Below, in pieces: positions 35,159-44,323 of a DNA stretch of 64,000 nucleotides; positions within the stretch are counted from its first letter, which is position 1, and the number at the start of each line of letters is the position of its first letter. The position numbers and the translations under genes are program-made. This stretch comes from Escherichia phage phiWec187, in the sequence record LC739536.1; one strand, given 5' to 3'. Under the pieces are notes generated by a model, which was not told the DNA's origin, made no database searches, and was given only the letters and a program-made list of their open reading frames with translations.

Positions 35159-35875
35159 TTATTTCAGTTTGTAAACAATTACATTTAAACCTTTGTTTAC
35201 TAGAGTTTCTTCGATCATAAGTTTTACAATATTCCAAGAACCTCCAGCCAAACCACAACCAAGCATTGGTAAACCTACAATTTTACCGCCTGAAGATACA
35301 ACATCGTCTCCCATACTATCTAGCGCATTGTAGATAGCTTCATAATTCAGGTCACGCTTACCTTCCTCACGACGACTATAACCATATTGTCCATATAAAT
35401 TATAAATTGTCAAATTGTTTTCTGTATATTTGGTAAACGTACCTAATTTTTTATAATCACCACGTTTAGTGGCACAATCTGCTTTAAACGCACCAGGCCA
35501 CTTGCTTTTAATTTTTGGTGCAATACCACTACCCATAGTGCAAAAACAGTTACAGCAGTGTGCTATAGCGTCTATATCGCCTCTCTCGGCTGCTGCTAAA
35601 AGATCACCGTATACCTCAATGATACCTGCTGGATAACTTGTTACAATTTCATCTTCCCAGTACATTTTCTCTACACCACCGATCAGTGCAAAGTTTTGTG
35701 TAATGCGATCATCAATATAGTTAAGCCCTGAAACATACACAGCGTATTCATCCTGTGCTGTAATACCTTGCACACGAATTCTTAAGACACCATCTTTATC
35801 TGTTGCTACACGCCCAAAATCTTTTTCTGTAATATTGGTGATAGGATCTCCGAAAGTCATTACTTTATTAGACAT
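35159..35875 (-). CDS. macro-domain protein (ADP-ribose binding/processing)
   Basis: AIAHCCNCFCTMGSGIA and GLPMLGCGLAGG resemble the paired Gly-rich loops of macro domains; start at ATG 35875 after AAAGGGGA. Confidence 0.55.
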   Translation of the reverse strand: MSNKVMTFGDPITNITEKDFGRVATDKDGVLRIRVQGITAQDEYAVYVSGLNYIDDRITQNFALIGGVEKMYWEDEIVTSYPAGIIEVYGDLLAAAERGDIDAIAHCCNCFCTMGSGIAPKIKSKWPGAFKADCATKRGDYKKLGTFTKYTENNLTIYNLYGQYGYSRREEGKRDLNYEAIYNALDSMGDDVVSSGGKIVGLPMLGCGLAGGSWNIVKLMIEETLVNKGLNVIVYKLK

Positions 35876-36725
35876 AATAATCCCCTTTAACATTAGATTT
35901 GTTGATAATGTTGCTTTCAAAAAATTGACGTAGGAAATCAAAGTTCTCTTTGTATTTTTCAATGTTATTGTAACCTTCTGCAAGGCAACCAAAGAACAGT
36001 TGTTCTACATAATACAAAGGAAGTTGTGAAAGTGCAATTTTAAAATCAACTTCGCTTTGACTCATTAGATACTTAATAGGACGAACCAAACATTTAGCAT
36101 CAGTTTCTTGCTTAATCATTTTAATAAAAGCTGCCAGATTATTGATATAGTTGAAGTTAAGTGCAGCTTCGGTATTGGCTTCTGTACCTTCATACTTTGC
36201 AAAGTACAGGAAAAACGTATCGTTTTCAACACCTTCTTTGTCTAAAATTTCAATAAGTTTTTCTTCGTGTGTTCCTGTAATATTAACATCATCAATGAAA
36301 ATCAGAGTTTTATTACCCCAGAAATCACGATTGATAGAGAAAGTGTCACCATCGATCAAAGCCTTACGATCTTCTTTGCTAAGAAATCCATAATCATTGA
36401 TATAACTCACTTTACGATGAACGATATCCCACTCCACTGCTTTACCTCCTTTGATAGAGATTAGGTAGTTGAGGTGATCTACAAAATGCTCAGATAACAC
36501 TGTAGCTGCATTTTTCACATAATTATATGGAGATGGAATAACAACAAAACTTTCATTTACTAGTCGTTCTTCATATTTAGAAAAGAAACTTTCAGCTAGA
36601 ATGCGTCCCATTCTTTTTGCTGCCTGGTTACTGCCAAACTTTAGTTTGGAATAATCTGCAATGTTAAATTTTGCTTCCTTCAGGTTAGTAAAAGTATTAG
36701 CAAAATGTTGAATTTGATTACGCAT
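35868..36725 (-). CDS. phosphoribosyltransferase-like protein (type I PRTase fold)
   Basis: TLIFIDDVNITGTHEE matches the PRPP-binding motif (hydrophobic run, DD, xxTGxT). Confidence 0.5.
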   Translation of the reverse strand: MRNQIQHFANTFTNLKEAKFNIADYSKLKFGSNQAAKRMGRILAESFFSKYEERLVNESFVVIPSPYNYVKNAATVLSEHFVDHLNYLISIKGGKAVEWDIVHRKVSYINDYGFLSKEDRKALIDGDTFSINRDFWGNKTLIFIDDVNITGTHEEKLIEILDKEGVENDTFFLYFAKYEGTEANTEAALNFNYINNLAAFIKMIKQETDAKCLVRPIKYLMSQSEVDFKIALSQLPLYYVEQLFFGCLAEGYNNIEKYKENFDFLRQFFESNIINKSNVKGDYYV

Positions 36726-38962: not shown

Positions 38963-39433
38963 TTAGTCAGATTCCCAAATGTTGTCTTTCTTAATCCACA
39001 TTCGTTGATTATCTGAACCTCTATAACGTTTCGTTGTTGGTTGATTCATATCATACTTACCATCTATCACTATGTCAACCAGTTTTTTAATTTTTTCTGG
39101 AATTTCCTCAAAAAGATATCCTGTATATAAGACAATATCTTTTTTGTTTCCAAAACAATCTCTTACCTTCTCAAGAACATACTCTACAGTGTCAATGTTC
39201 TCTTTGTCAAGAGGTTCACCACCTAAAACTGTTAATCCTTTAATGAAAGGTCGAGATAAATCTTTCAAGATAAGATCTAATGTTTCAGTAGTGAACTCTT
39301 GTCCGTGGTTATACGACCAGGCTTTCTGGTTAAAGCAGCCACGGCAACCGTGGCTACAACCGCTCACCCACAAAGAGCATCTTACACCGTCACCGTTGAG
39401 CATGTCAACAGGTTCATATCCGGCGTAATTCAA
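38963..39433 (-). CDS. nrdG: anaerobic ribonucleotide reductase activating protein (radical SAM)
   Basis: CSLWVSGCSHGCRGC Cys cluster near the N-terminus; 156 aa; immediately downstream of nrdD. Confidence 0.8.
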   Translation of the reverse strand: MNYAGYEPVDMLNGDGVRCSLWVSGCSHGCRGCFNQKAWSYNHGQEFTTETLDLILKDLSRPFIKGLTVLGGEPLDKENIDTVEYVLEKVRDCFGNKKDIVLYTGYLFEEIPEKIKKLVDIVIDGKYDMNQPTTKRYRGSDNQRMWIKKDNIWESD

Positions 39434-40371
39434 AAATGTTTCTCCCTTTCTAGTACCTCTTGCATTTTACCTTTATTATAGGGGCGAGAGTTAGGGGCAG
39501 AAAGGTATCCTGACACTCTTCTGATCACAGATATGGATTCTTCTTCATGATTGCCACAACTTGGACACTCGAAGCCTTTAGCCGTTGCTTTAAATTCACC
39601 ATGAAAACCACATTTGAAACACTGATCTACAGGTTGGTTCACACCAAAATAAGGAATTTTGTTGTAGGCATAATCTACAAGAGTTTCCAGTGCTTGCAAG
39701 TTATTTTTAAGGTTTGGTGTTTCTACATAACCTATGTTCCCACCATTACTGATTTGTGCAAAACCTTCCTCATAATCCCACTTTTGGAACGGGGTAGTGT
39801 GCATCCATACAGGTTGATGGAAAGAGTTTGTCAAGTAGTCACGATCAATAGAACCAGGATAGCGATCATTTAATGCTTTGGCAAATTTATAGCACAAGGA
39901 TTCTGCTGGTGTTCCATACAAACTAAAAGCTAAACCAGAACGTTCTTTAAATGTGCCACAGATATCCTTCATATATTGAAGGATGTTTTTACCCATTGCT
40001 TTTGTATTGGTGTTACCTGGGTATAAAATCTCCATAGCTTCTGCTAAACCTACATAACCGATACTAATAGAGGCATAACCACCTTCGAATAGTTTACCAA
40101 TCTCTTCATTAGCTTCTAGTCGAGCTAAAGCCCCTTCCATAAACAATGTAGGGTTTTGAGATGCTTTGGTATGTCTAATACGGTTAACACGTAGCATATG
40201 TGCCTTATACGCCATCTCCATATGTTGTTCCAACAGTTCAGTAAATAAGATGCCCTTTTCACGGGACTCTGCTGCAATGATAGGTAAGTTTAAAGAAACC
40301 ACGCCTAAGTTGAAACGACCATCATATTTTTCACCTTGCTCTGTTGCGTAGTATGACAAGAAACTTCTACA
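39430..40371 (-). CDS. nrdD: anaerobic ribonucleoside-triphosphate reductase, exon 2
   Basis: Begins CRSFL; contains C-terminal zinc ribbon (CFKCGFHGEF...CPSCGN) and glycyl-radical motif RRVSGYL. Confidence 0.8.
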   Translation of the reverse strand, partial: CRSFLSYYATEQGEKYDGRFNLGVVSLNLPIIAAESREKGILFTELLEQHMEMAYKAHMLRVNRIRHTKASQNPTLFMEGALARLEANEEIGKLFEGGYASISIGYVGLAEAMEILYPGNTNTKAMGKNILQYMKDICGTFKERSGLAFSLYGTPAESLCYKFAKALNDRYPGSIDRDYLTNSFHQPVWMHTTPFQKWDYEEGFAQISNGGNIGYVETPNLKNNLQALETLVDYAYNKIPYFGVNQPVDQCFKCGFHGEFKATAKGFECPSCGNHEEESISVIRRVSGYLSAPNSRPYNKGKMQEVLEREKHF

Positions 40372-41140
40372 CATTATGTTCAAAGTGGCTCGCAAGGCCA
40401 CTCCCGCACCATTACGTGCTGCTGCATGTCACCATGCAGATCAGACTATATCTTCATGCTTAAAGCATGTCTACCATTTGGGGTGTCATAGGCTTACACC
40501 CTACGCTGCTACATTCATCACAGCTAGTCGTTAGGCATTTCGTAACAGAACTCATAATCATAATTATTTGGTGCTCCTCGCTTTAAGATTGCAGATATTC
40601 TTTTTCTGTCCAACCCTAAAGCGTCAGCACAACATCTCAGACTTTTAAAGTAAAAAACTTCACCGGTAGCCTTATGAGTAGCTTTTACACTGTGACACCT
40701 TGTGTAGAAAGCATAACAGTTATTATCGTAACCCTCTTGCGTGTTGTCTGGACAAGATCCCCACTCAAGATTGTATACACTATTGTCTTTCCTATTGTCA
40801 CCTTTATGCTTCACATAAGGTAAATTGTCTGGATTGGGTAAAAACGCTTCAGCTACAAGTCTGTGCACCCGAAAGCAAACAGTTTTCTTGTTTTTACGTA
40901 TTCTGACAAGTTGGTATCCTGTGTTTATTTCTTCCCACGAGCGAAGGATTCTTTCATCCTTATACCTGGTACAATAAACATTTCCAAGCTCGTCAATTTC
41001 ATACCCTTCAAAATCACGAATTTGTTTTCTCATATCAGTACCCCCTTCTTCTGTGTTGGGAGTTCTGTTACGTTTAGCACGGGATTGTCTCGTTGAGAGT
41101 TCCCCCGTTTAGGCAGATTTTACATGAGCAGTTATAGTTT
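40372..41140 (-). mobile_element. group I intron (IA2-like) interrupting nrdD
   Basis: 769 nt; 5' exon ends CAUGGGU, which can pair with intron GCUCAUG (P1, U.G at the splice site); intron core AAACGGGGGAACUCUCAACGAGACAAUCCCGUGCUAAA closely resembles the T4 td intron core; intron ends in G; splicing rejoins ...TSMG|CRSFL... Confidence 0.8.
40524..41033 (-). CDS. intron-encoded HNH homing endonuclease
   Basis: 169-aa ORF inside the intron; VHRLVAEAF...HKGDNRKDNSVYNLEW is an HNH signature. Confidence 0.75.
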   Translation of the reverse strand: MRKQIRDFEGYEIDELGNVYCTRYKDERILRSWEEINTGYQLVRIRKNKKTVCFRVHRLVAEAFLPNPDNLPYVKHKGDNRKDNSVYNLEWGSCPDNTQEGYDNNCYAFYTRCHSVKATHKATGEVFYFKSLRCCADALGLDRKRISAILKRGAPNNYDYEFCYEMPND

Positions 41141-41998
41141 ACCCATGCTTGTGACGCGACCATCTGAAGATCCTGTAACTTCTTTGTTTAAAGGTACAGA
41201 GATAAAATCAGGATAAATGCGTTCAGCACAACACTCCATTGCCAGTTGCTTCAAATCATAGTTTGGATCGCCAGCTTTCATGTTAACACCATCTTCCAAG
41301 AAGAAGATAACTTTAGGAAACACAGGAGTTACCCTATCTTTTCCTAATCCTTGTTTGTGCACCATTAGGTAGTTTTTAGTGATCATTCTACCAAAAGCAG
41401 AGGTATCCAAGCCTAAACTAATTGTTATAAAAGGTGACTGACCATTTACACTCATTAGGGTGTTCACCTGGTAGATTAAAGTTTGCATTGCATCATAAAC
41501 CTGTTTATCTACCATACGCATAGCAATATCATAATCGCCAACATCGGCGTATATTTTATTAAAACTTGCTTTAACGTATTGACTAAGCCCAGTATCAATA
41601 TGTGCACAAGTTTGTCCACCATATTGGCTAGAAGCTACTGCTTGAATAATTTGAGTTAGGACAGTAGTTGCTACACCGATAGATTTTGGTTTTTCAATAT
41701 GTGCATTACCAATACGGAAACCGTTCTCAAGCATATCTTGGTAATTTACCAGGCAACAATTAGTTAGAGGTGAGAGTAAATAATCTAAATCGTGAATGTG
41801 ACCATACCCACTTTTATGCCATTCTGCCAGATCTTCCGGTAAAATATGGGTCATTGCCATGTGCTTGCTTAGGATACCTGCTAGTAAGTCTCGGTGAGTA
41901 TTAACAATCATTGCAGGTTTGTTTGCATTTTCACGAGTAAATTCTTCGGATGTTTGTTCGAGGAATCCGATTACATCCTCATATAGTTTTTGGGTCAT
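41141..41998 (-). CDS. nrdD: anaerobic ribonucleoside-triphosphate reductase, exon 1
   Basis: 286 codons ending ...GRVTSMG at the 5' splice site; the listed ORF reads 2 codons into the intron before a stop. Confidence 0.8.
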
Positions 41999-43055: not shown

Positions 43056-43490
43056 TTAGTTTAAAATTTCTTTTGCAATGGTAGAAGCAAGTTTTCCATC
43101 ATATTGATTCGGATACTCTGCTTTAAGGTGTTTCATCATATCTGGCATTTTCTTGCCTGTCAAGGCAAATTCTTCGGCAATAGCTCGAAGATCATCTTCA
43201 GATAGCATTTCTGGTAAATATTTCTCCAGAGTGGTGATATCACGCATAGCTCTCTCACATTTGCTAAGGGAAGCATTAACTTTCTTAAGCGAGTCTAGTT
43301 CCTCTTTAGCGTGTGCAATACCAATCTTAACAATGTTAATCATAATATCGTCTTCTGATTTGTTTAGATTTGCCTTTTGAGTACGAGCAAGGTCAAACTC
43401 ACCAATAATATTAGTTAACAAAGCAAAAGCACCCTTATCGGTTGTACGTGCTAAGATACGATCTGCTTTCATTTGTGTCACAATAGACAT
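43056..43490 (-). CDS. GatB/YqeY-domain protein
   Basis: 144 aa; C-terminal LRAIAEEFALTGKKMPDMMKHLKAEYPNQYDGKLASTIAKEIL resembles the YqeY C-terminal domain. Confidence 0.45.
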   Translation of the reverse strand: MSIVTQMKADRILARTTDKGAFALLTNIIGEFDLARTQKANLNKSEDDIMINIVKIGIAHAKEELDSLKKVNASLSKCERAMRDITTLEKYLPEMLSEDDLRAIAEEFALTGKKMPDMMKHLKAEYPNQYDGKLASTIAKEILN

Positions 43491-43502
43491 TCTATTCTCC
43501 TC

Positions 43503-44075
43503 TTATTTGCTAATGCTTTGAGTCTTGTTTATAACACGGTTTATTGCCAGTGAAGCCCTAGGCTCCGCAATACCTGTTGCATAGATATAAGGATGACCTC
43601 TTGGAGACTCCCTCATACCGAATGAACCTAATTCTAAACCATATTCATCCTCTACGTCAACCCCAATATTAGTGGGTACTAAATATGTTTTAACTCCATA
43701 ATAAGTAGAGAAGAAACAGCGCATAGCGTTAGCATACTCTTCAATTGTAGCATCAGGGTAGAACTCAATCAACTCCAATTTCAAGAAAATATTAAAATGG
43801 GTATCATCTAAATTTTCTTCTGTACGGTAACATGGCGTTAGTGCCATATACGGATTACCTGCTGCAAATTCAAAACCATCCTTCTCCATTTGCAGGAAAG
43901 ATTGTTCTGCACTAGCTACATAGTATTTACCGTTAGGATGCCCTAATGGGCGATCCTCTTTATTTTCTGGTAGTGTGTACGCTAGTATATCAGCATCCAC
44001 GAGATATGGAACTTCTAACATTTGTGCAAATCGACCATAGTAATCAATAGCTTGAGCTATTACTGCAACATTCAT
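43503..44075 (-). CDS. class II aminoacyl-tRNA-synthetase-like catalytic core fragment
   Basis: ALTPCYRTEE...HFNIFLKLELIEFY resembles class II motif 2 (fRxE...EF..lE); only 190 aa. Confidence 0.35.
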   Translation of the reverse strand: MNVAVIAQAIDYYGRFAQMLEVPYLVDADILAYTLPENKEDRPLGHPNGKYYVASAEQSFLQMEKDGFEFAAGNPYMALTPCYRTEENLDDTHFNIFLKLELIEFYPDATIEEYANAMRCFFSTYYGVKTYLVPTNIGVDVEDEYGLELGSFGMRESPRGHPYIYATGIAEPRASLAINRVINKTQSISK

Positions 44076-44323
44076 GATCGACCTCCATTGCGGAATGCAC
44101 GTTTAGTAATGTTTGACATAGTGATCAAATCTTGAAGCGTCATATCAGGAAAATGCTGTTCAAGAACACCTTCAACAGCGCCTACAATATCTGATAACTC
44201 AATAAGTTGCATCAGCTTGCAGTCTTGATCAATAGCATCTTGAAGTTCATAAAGCTCTTCTTGAATCTTAGCAACAGAACCATATTCCTCTTTGCTAATC
44301 TCCTTCAAATGATACCCTGCCAC
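44072..44323 (-). CDS. MazG-like nucleotide pyrophosphohydrolase (small)
   Basis: IQEELYELQDAI...LIELSDIVGA fits the MazG EExxEL...ELxD pattern. Confidence 0.45.
   Translation of the reverse strand: MAGYHLKEISKEEYGSVAKIQEELYELQDAIDQDCKLMQLIELSDIVGAVEGVLEQHFPDMTLQDLITMSNITKRAFRNGGRS

Follow-up and report, generated by a model that had tools for sequence, protein, structure and literature searches.

Truncated paralogues of aminoacyl-tRNA synthetases (aaRSs) transfer amino acids to carrier proteins, EF-P, ammonia or a tRNA base (PMC9437257). Among these, the SerRS-like amino acid:[carrier protein] ligases (Bll0957/Atu2573) combine an adenylate-forming class II core that has no tRNA-binding domain with a small partner, encoded by a neighbouring gene, to which the amino acid is handed (PMC9437257). 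In the MazZ-PurZ system (with DatZ), a small nucleoside triphosphate (NTP) pyrophosphohydrolase of the MazG/HisE fold is conserved together with an ATP-dependent enzyme that couples an amino acid to a nucleotide, and MazZ supplies (d)GMP to PurZ (PMC8342488). Here we describe a gene pair with likeness to both systems, located at positions 43503-44323 of a 64,000-nucleotide (nt) stretch of Escherichia phage phiWec187 (LC739536.1; hereafter the window). It encodes a MazG-like protein of 83 amino acids (aa) and an aaRS-like protein of 190 aa that resembles the catalytic core of seryl-tRNA synthetase (SerRS). We conclude that the pair is a widespread, uncharacterised two-gene, and sometimes fused, enzyme module; full-text literature searches, of which roughly half targeted this pairing, retrieved no published description of it.

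The amino acid:[carrier protein] ligases, of about 290 aa, descend from the zinc-dependent, methanogen-type SerRS and work with a carrier protein that is phosphopantetheinylated. The small protein of the phage pair differs in carrying a MazG metal-binding motif, and its sole candidate for a phosphopantetheine-bearing serine, S44, is variable. The likeness to MazZ-PurZ extends to one locus (L097) in which a fused aaRS-MazG gene stands beside an adenylosuccinate-synthetase-family gene; the ligase of the pair has the class II aaRS fold, with acyl-adenylate chemistry, whereas PurZ has the PurA fold. In close relatives of the phage, neither PurZ nor DatZ is annotated in the roughly 9 kb on either side of the pair and its adjoining YqeY gene, and phi92-like phages are not known to carry Z-DNA. 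GluQRS (YadB), PoxA/EpmA and AsnA differ in their parents (GluRS of class I; LysRS and AspRS of class IIb), in their size of 300-330 aa and in having no MazG-like partner.

The MazG-like and aaRS-like genes form the conserved unit

The initial annotation of this DNA had placed three consecutive open reading frames (ORFs), encoding YqeY-like, class II aaRS-like and MazG-like proteins, at positions 43056-44323 and treated them as a trio. The three minus-strand ORFs do lie in a row at exactly these coordinates, each preceded by a Shine-Dalgarno site (Table 1). Comparison among loci reveals that the real unit is the MazG-like/aaRS-like pair rather than the trio, and this conserved pairing is the main point that had been missed.

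A scan of viral contigs (up to 578 kb) with an aaRS-like profile yielded 64 loci whose aaRS-like proteins are 28-98% identical to the query, and the addition of cellular and other loci gave a set of 84, with identities down to 24%. The MazG-like and aaRS-like genes share a strand in 79 of the 84 loci, and 55 of these have the two genes no more than 60 nt apart, usually with overlapping stop and start codons; the gap between the domains is -15 to +10 nt in most related loci. A six-frame search recovered a further MazG-like gene in one locus; another locus has a mere remnant, and three have none. The order of the two genes is reversed in 15 loci. In the window, the MazG-like gene begins with a GTG codon behind a GGGGG ribosome-binding site, and the aaRS-like gene is preceded, 7 nt upstream of its start and within the MazG-like gene, by a GGAGG site. 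The ATGA stop/start overlap of the two genes points to translational coupling.

The two proteins also occur as single polypeptides. Approximately 11 loci (L055, L058, L062, L067-71, L077, L081 and L083) encode single-ORF fusions with the aaRS-like part N-terminal and the MazG-like part C-terminal, and among the 150 best-scoring cluster representatives 9 show the same type of fusion, 260-274 aa long. These representatives come from an exhaustive profile search for the aaRS-like family, which returned 1,605 clusters at 50% identity (E <=1e-3). By tblastn, the aaRS-like gene is present in 272 cultured phage genomes, including phi92/phAPEC8-like phages, Acinetobacter T4-like phages, Caulobacter and Brevundimonas jumbo phages, and Microcystis, Pectobacterium and Erwinia phages.

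We searched for a third partner by all-versus-all BLAST clustering and Pfam scans of the first, second and third neighbours. No universal third gene was found, and no other family is common to more than about 9 of the 64 viral loci. The partners that were identified are restricted to particular lineages: a viperin/MoaA-like radical S-adenosylmethionine (SAM) protein, a sulfotransferase and a cupin-like HxH domain. A mirror-tree test was uninformative, as pairwise identity among the aaRS-like proteins tracks that among the MazG-like proteins only weakly (Pearson 0.47, Spearman 0.14).

The third ORF encodes a genuine YqeY-domain protein. It matches Pfam PF09424 over residues 38-143 (30.4 bits; gathering score 27) and PHROG 1460 with an E-value of 2e-36; PF09424 is also precomputed on most of its homologues. 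Homologues with at least 63% identity occur only in phages of about 140-156 kb, and the gene adjoins the pair in phi92-like loci only. Two related loci (L087 and L089) encode YqeY homologues 65-72% identical to that of the window at an unchanged place in the gene order (helicase ... YqeY ... gp194-like ... PRTase, macro domain) and have no MazG/aaRS pair within 6 kb. We rejected the trio as a conserved operon, given that YqeY stands beside the pair in phi92-like loci only and keeps its slot without the pair in related phages. YqeY is a neighbour specific to the phi92 lineage.

Predicted active sites of the two proteins

The 190-aa protein matches nothing in Pfam or NCBIfam above threshold. It matches PHROG 4806 ('histidyl tRNA synthetase') at E 3e-71, and its homologues are all stand-alone proteins of about 176-220 aa. 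An AlphaFold2 model built from a 35-homologue alignment has a mean confidence (pLDDT) of 95.6, and the protein has the antiparallel beta-sheet core fold of class II synthetases. The family profile reaches Aquifex SerRS (E 2e-5), and hhalign to the E. coli and Woesebacteria SerRSs gives an E-value of 2.6e-6, with residues 3-187 of the query corresponding to residues 169-411 of the E. coli enzyme. Among individual family members, the best Pfam matches, all weak, are to tRNA-synt_2 and tRNA-synt_2d; tRNA-synt_2b is matched above threshold by none of 35 members, and a single one matches it at E 0.21. A direct sequence search of solved structures found no family member, the single sequence giving chance matches only.

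The signatures that the protein has in common with bacterial-type SerRS, TPC[FY]RxE, FxKxE, ExxS and [ST]GxAxxR, map onto the E. coli positions given in Table 1. Twelve residues (S55, E57, R84, F97, K99, E101, D140, E148, G150, S151, T167 and R173) are 100% invariant in 260 non-identical members. All three class II motifs are present in this set: P23 of motif 1 is conserved in 96%, R84 and E/D86 of motif 2 in 100% and 95%, and R173 of motif 3 in 100%. By comparison with the roles of the aligned positions in SerRS crystal structures, we take S55/E57, R84, E101, E148/S151, T167 and R173 to be the positions that contact ATP, Mg and serine, of which S55/E57, E101 and T167 are specific to SerRS and would recognise serine. 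Because these positions are invariant, the 190-aa protein appears to be a catalytically intact, serine-type, adenylate-forming core, with serine as its predicted substrate.

The elements of SerRS that the protein lacks are those outside the core. It is 190 aa long against 430 aa, the two share 17-20% identity, and the phage-type core is nearly always partnered by a MazG-like protein. The N-terminal coiled-coil tRNA arm is absent, as the alignment begins at E. coli SerRS residue 169, and Pfam Seryl_tRNA_N has no match in the aaRS-like proteins. About 58 loop residues have been lost relative to E. coli SerRS, six of them from the motif-2 loop (17 residues against 23), and the C-terminal extension is gone as well. 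The protein had initially been called a fragment; it is instead a full-length member of a stand-alone family, and we know of no smaller natural catalytic core of the class II synthetase type. GenBank records already label these genes 'seryl/histidyl-tRNA synthetase', 'YqeY-like' and 'MazG-type fold', and the tRNA-synthetase label that GenBank and PHROG attach to the 190-aa gene is probably wrong.

The 83-aa protein scores 15.0 bits against Pfam PRA-PH, below the gathering score of 21.3 (E 0.034). Among 45 diverse homologues, 37 match PRA-PH (best E 2e-4) and five match MazG, all weakly. The residues K19, E22, E23, E26, E42 and D45 are invariant in the 45 sequences, and the protein contains the EExxE-(12-28)-ExxD metal-binding signature. 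As in the MazG/HisE (PRA-PH) proteins, the motif reads K-x2-E-E-x2-E ... E-x2-D, with a spacing of 16 residues that is also that of the E. coli MazG N-terminal domain. The phage segment EELYELQDAIDQDCKLMQLIELSDIV aligns without gaps with the motif of that domain, EETYEVLDAIAREDFDDLRGELGDLL, at 10 of 26 identical positions, and hhalign against E. coli MazG aligns the motif region alone (E 0.033). The best Foldseek matches are HisE and MazG structures (1yvw, 2a7w, 3cra, 2yxh and 1vmg), with non-significant E-values. The 83-aa protein differs from MazG/HisE in having three helices only, in scoring below all curated thresholds, in the addition of invariant N-terminal GYH and C-terminal F..G.R motifs, and in being obligately paired or fused with the aaRS-like core. 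Below formal thresholds, the assignment as MazG/HisE-like is nevertheless well supported. Both the MazG-like and the aaRS-like proteins are strongly acidic.

We also considered the 83-aa protein as an acyl or peptidyl carrier, as its 'ELSD' recalls the 'DSL' of acyl carrier proteins. Many of the 45 homologues have Ala or Cys in place of S44, and this reading was rejected because of that variation and because it is the acidic MazG residues that are invariant.

In three lineages the MazG-like protein is fused to a cupin-like HxH domain (FGLGF.Q.K ... H[DN]H...F.S..LKG) that has no Pfam match; a Pfam scan of the extension domains fused to MazG-like proteins likewise gave no matches. The cupin-like domain is N-terminal to the MazG-like part in two jumbo-phage contigs (L032, 5070-5760; L040, 4953-5600) and C-terminal in Acinetobacter phage Phab24 (L094, 4500-4999). 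It is encoded by a separate gene just downstream of the pair in another locus (L078, 5579-6214), and a smaller HxHxHPWxF family occurs one gene upstream in two more (L048 and L063).

The fold assignments of the initial annotation hold for YqeY and for the class II core, and probably, through its motif, for the MazG-like protein.

Candidate functions of the pair

The gene contexts of the pair in cellular genomes offer hints of its function. The fused genes of a Woesebacteria chromosome, a member of the Nanoarchaeota and another archaeon each overlap a gene for a small radical-SAM protein of 221-256 aa (L067, 7234-8004; L069, 7822-8487; L083, 5771-6457), with CxxxCxFC near the N-terminus of the product. 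The radical-SAM proteins of these loci, from the candidate phyla radiation (CPR) and DPANN, are mutually homologous, and match PADLOC pVip (viperin) at 1.9e-10 and NCBIfam MoaA at 7e-10. Enzymes of the viperin and MoaA types both use free NTPs. The overlap of the radical-SAM gene with the aaRS-like::MazG-like fusion suggests a three-enzyme nucleotide pathway. This radical-SAM family is absent from every phage locus examined. The Woesebacteria genome also encodes a canonical SerRS of 424 aa, with Seryl_tRNA_N, 5 kb from the fused gene, which is therefore no SerRS replacement.

Further contexts involve nucleotides or small molecules. Directly upstream of the aaRS-like gene in two metagenome-assembled genomes of the PVC group, a Pirellulaceae (L075, 1686-2762) and a Verrucomicrobiia (L076, 2609-3538), lies a sulfotransferase gene (Pfam Sulfotransfer_3, approximately 1e-21), and the MazG-like gene is missing. 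Fused genes adjoin an IMPDH-family gene and, in L097, the adenylosuccinate-synthetase-family gene mentioned above, and neighbours of the pair include NrdD/G, ribonucleotide reductase, ThyA and DHFR. We favour a nucleotide or other small molecule as the acceptor because of the radical-SAM, sulfotransferase and purine-gene contexts and the acidity of both proteins.

We tentatively propose, as the best of the explanations considered and one that we hold at somewhat less than probable, that the pair is a two-component serine-adenylating ligase for a nucleotide-type acceptor and not a canonical synthetase. The MazG/HisE-fold NTP pyrophosphohydrolase subunit and the SerRS-derived class II ligase would work as one enzyme system, which in some lineages would be a single polypeptide. 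The 190-aa core would bind ATP/Mg together with serine or a near analogue to form an aminoacyl-adenylate, and would hand the aminoacyl group to a nucleotide-type acceptor, for example the hydroxyl or amine of a mononucleotide or nucleotide derivative. Its partner, the MazG-like protein, would convert an NTP, either canonical or, where the radical-SAM enzyme occurs, modified by it, to the acceptor nucleoside monophosphate (NMP). The parallel for such a supply of NMP from NTP would be MazZ, which provides dGMP to the amino-acid-ligating PurZ. A more specific version, which we regard as possible but on the unlikely side, is that of an aminoacyl-nucleotide synthase, in which the core of about 180 aa esterifies or amidates serine onto the mononucleotide released by the MazG-like protein. 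In CPR and DPANN organisms the substrate would be an NTP remodelled by the radical-SAM enzyme, and phages would make a new seryl-nucleotide metabolite or neutralise chain-terminating nucleotides of the host such as ddhNTPs.

Several points weigh against the proposed ligase. Its acceptor is one that we infer entirely, its putative serine specificity is predicted from alignment to SerRS positions with roles known from crystal structures, and its MazG-like subunit is identified by a motif together with profile and fold scores that stay below threshold. In most of the phage loci the pair has no neighbouring radical-SAM, sulfotransferase or purine gene, so that the cellular contexts may not carry over to phages. 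Other evidence points towards tRNA: of 57 phage loci, 8 from five lineages have the pair within or bordering a tRNA gene array, often with tRNA-Ser genes (a raw count); genes for RNA ligase, RlaP, PTH2 and CCA-adding enzyme recur near it; and the next gene in the phage studied here codes for the YqeY protein, with its tRNA-binding domain. We keep a tRNA-directed role as a live rival.

The form of that role with most in its favour is a genuine mini-SerRS that charges host or phage tRNA(Ser) for phage translation, with tRNA bound in trans by the MazG-like protein and, in phi92-like phages, also by YqeY. The nearest relatives of the core in sequence and structure are SerRSs, its serine- and ATP-binding positions are all invariant, and the tRNA arrays, the PTH2, CCA-adding-enzyme and RNA-ligase genes near some loci and the adjacent YqeY would all fit such a function. 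However, to our knowledge every characterised SerRS needs the coiled-coil arm to recognise the long variable arm, and the core has neither this arm nor a full-length motif-2 loop. Because every known SerRS element for tRNA recognition is missing, the core would be no canonical SerRS. Both proteins are very acidic, the partner retains a metal-binding motif of NTP pyrophosphohydrolases and not basic RNA-binding features, and YqeY is not co-inherited with the pair. A canonical SerRS coexists with the fusion in a reduced CPR genome, and radical-SAM and sulfotransferase partners make no sense beside a housekeeping synthetase. We consider a mini-SerRS unlikely. The initial suggestion that a truncated core would not be an ordinary synthetase is supported by the missing tRNA arm, the motif-2 loop shorter by six residues, the coexisting SerRS and the radical-SAM and sulfotransferase partners.

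Alternatively, the pair might repair tRNA 3' ends or act in counter-defence, with the core docking the CCA end, the MazG-like protein stripping a blocking pyrophosphate or nucleotide (such as the 3'-pyrophosphorylation that toxins of the CapRel/FaRel type add) and the core possibly re-acylating or protecting the end. Pyrophosphate linkages are cleaved by enzymes of the MazG type, and A76 fits into class II active sites; this idea would suit both the surroundings of tRNA arrays and RNA-repair genes (RNA ligase, RlaP, CCA-adding enzyme) and the occurrence of the module mainly in large virulent phages. It is purely analogical, however, and a docking role leaves the invariant serine-binding residues unexplained. 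The module also occurs in CPR/DPANN chromosomes beside a radical-SAM partner, neither protein of the pair has a PADLOC or other defence-related match, and the enrichment in tRNA arrays is modest, given as raw counts without a genome-wide baseline. We consider this explanation quite unlikely.

On the reading of the initial annotation, the neighbours would be independent enzymes: YqeY, an amino-acid ligase of a general kind, and a MazG that acts on alarmones or, as a further possibility, cleans up the dNTP pool. Stand-alone phage MazG enzymes do exist, and YqeY is truly independent of the other two genes. MazG-like triphosphatases are also scattered through jumbo phages (PMC7824862). An independent action of the other two is hard to reconcile with their same-strand adjacency in 79 of 84 loci, their stop/start overlaps, the permuted gene order and the repeated fusions, and we regard it as improbable. 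The notion of an independent MazG enzyme that counters alarmones is not supported, as the MazG-like protein is coupled or fused to the aaRS-like protein across hundreds of lineages, and the evidence gathered here bears in no way on alarmones.

Class II synthetases form Ap4A from the aminoacyl-adenylate, and with an intact ATP site and a nucleotide-directed partner the core could make Ap4A/Ap4N as LysU does, with the MazG-like protein shaping or degrading this dinucleoside polyphosphate signal. Specific support for such a signalling enzyme is nil, it would be unusual for a synthase to be fused with an enzyme that hydrolyses what it makes, and the radical-SAM and sulfotransferase partners would be left unexplained; we hold it to be very improbable. 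Least credible is a non-catalytic paralogue in the manner of HisZ, SLIMP or Pol gamma B that regulates its MazG/HisE-like partner, which we rejected, in spite of HisE being the partner's best Pfam and Foldseek match, because the arginines of motifs 2 and 3, the Mg ligands and the residues that bind the amino acid do not vary among 260 sequences, whereas HisZ has no adenylation activity (PMC9437257), and because none of the neighbourhoods scanned contains a HisG-like gene.

The phi92-like locus and significance of the module

The window derives from a phi92-like E. coli phage (Justusliebigvirus, Stephanstirmvirinae) and is 98-99.4% identical to such phages. On one side, the three genes are flanked by a UvrD-type helicase gene with an intein, and on the other by a gp194-like gene followed by nrdD and nrdG (Table 1). 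We found no tRNA genes in the window, no Rfam family reaching its gathering score there, and no match of PADLOC defence models to the three proteins.

Table 1. Features of the window, and residues of the 190-aa protein aligned with E. coli SerRS
Feature	Position	Strand	Remarks
MazG/HisE-fold-like protein, 83 aa	44072..44323	-	phi92 gp197 homologue; first gene of conserved pair
aaRS-like (SerRS-like) minimal class II core, 190 aa	43503..44075	-	phi92 gp196 homologue; second gene of pair
ATGA stop/start overlap, MazG-like/aaRS-like genes	44072..44075	-	sequence read directly
YqeY-domain protein, 144 aa	43056..43490	-	phi92 gp195 homologue; lineage-specific neighbour, outside pair
UvrD/Rep-type helicase, 937 aa	44334-47147	-	length due to intein
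gp194-like protein, 316 aa	42088-43038	-	phrog_15930, E 2e-182
nrdD (anaerobic ribonucleotide reductase), split	39430-41998	-	
nrdD N-terminal part, 288 aa	41132-41998	-	
nrdD C-terminal part, 323 aa	39430-40401	-	
HNH/I-HmuI-like homing-endonuclease ORF	40524-41033		in nrdD insertion
Group I intron match	40422-40529		Rfam, sub-threshold; in nrdD insertion
PRTase_3/HAD/macro-domain block	35868-36725 and neighbours		downstream of the three genes
TxE loop	S55/E57		E. coli SerRS T237/E239; alignment
Motif 2	R84/E86		E. coli SerRS R268/E270; alignment
FxKxE	F97/K99/E101		E. coli SerRS F287/K289/E291; alignment
Mg ligand positions	E148/S151		E. coli SerRS E355/S358; alignment
Residue before motif 3	T167		E. 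coli SerRS S391; alignment
Motif 3	R173		E. coli SerRS R397; alignment

The helicase intein is annotated in phage JohannJBalmer, and the homologue in KMB37 is intein-free, with 578 aa. The nrdD gene is interrupted by an insertion of about 800 nt that holds the homing-endonuclease ORF, and the group I intron match within it reaches 39.2 bits, short of the gathering score of 50 (E 2.5e-8). JohannJBalmer and KMB37 have the gene unsplit, and one other locus (L003) has the same split. PHROGs labels the gp194-like protein 'ribonucleotide reductase'; this label looks unsupported because the protein has no match in Pfam or PADLOC. Downstream of the three genes lies a conserved block encoding a PRTase_3-type phosphoribosyltransferase, a HAD hydrolase and a macro-domain protein, to which L087 adds a PARP-like gene and L089 an NMN-transporter gene. 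The block may be a module related to NAD or ADP-ribose.

For the annotation of phages, these results mean that hundreds of genomes carry a 'seryl-' or 'histidyl-tRNA synthetase' label that is probably wrong, and that the 83-aa 'hypothetical' neighbour is an obligate partner of the protein so labelled. At 175-200 aa with all catalytic residues invariant, the aaRS-like core is near the size of the engineered 'urzymes', and offers a natural test case for ideas about a minimal aaRS ancestor. The breadth of the module, with approximately 1,600 clusters and an occurrence in large virulent and jumbo phages and, beside a viperin-like enzyme, in bacteria and archaea with reduced genomes, implies that it is generally useful. 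Its candidate roles are the production of a new nucleotide-amino-acid metabolite, the supply of a precursor for DNA or tRNA modification, and counter-defence against nucleotide-based immunity.

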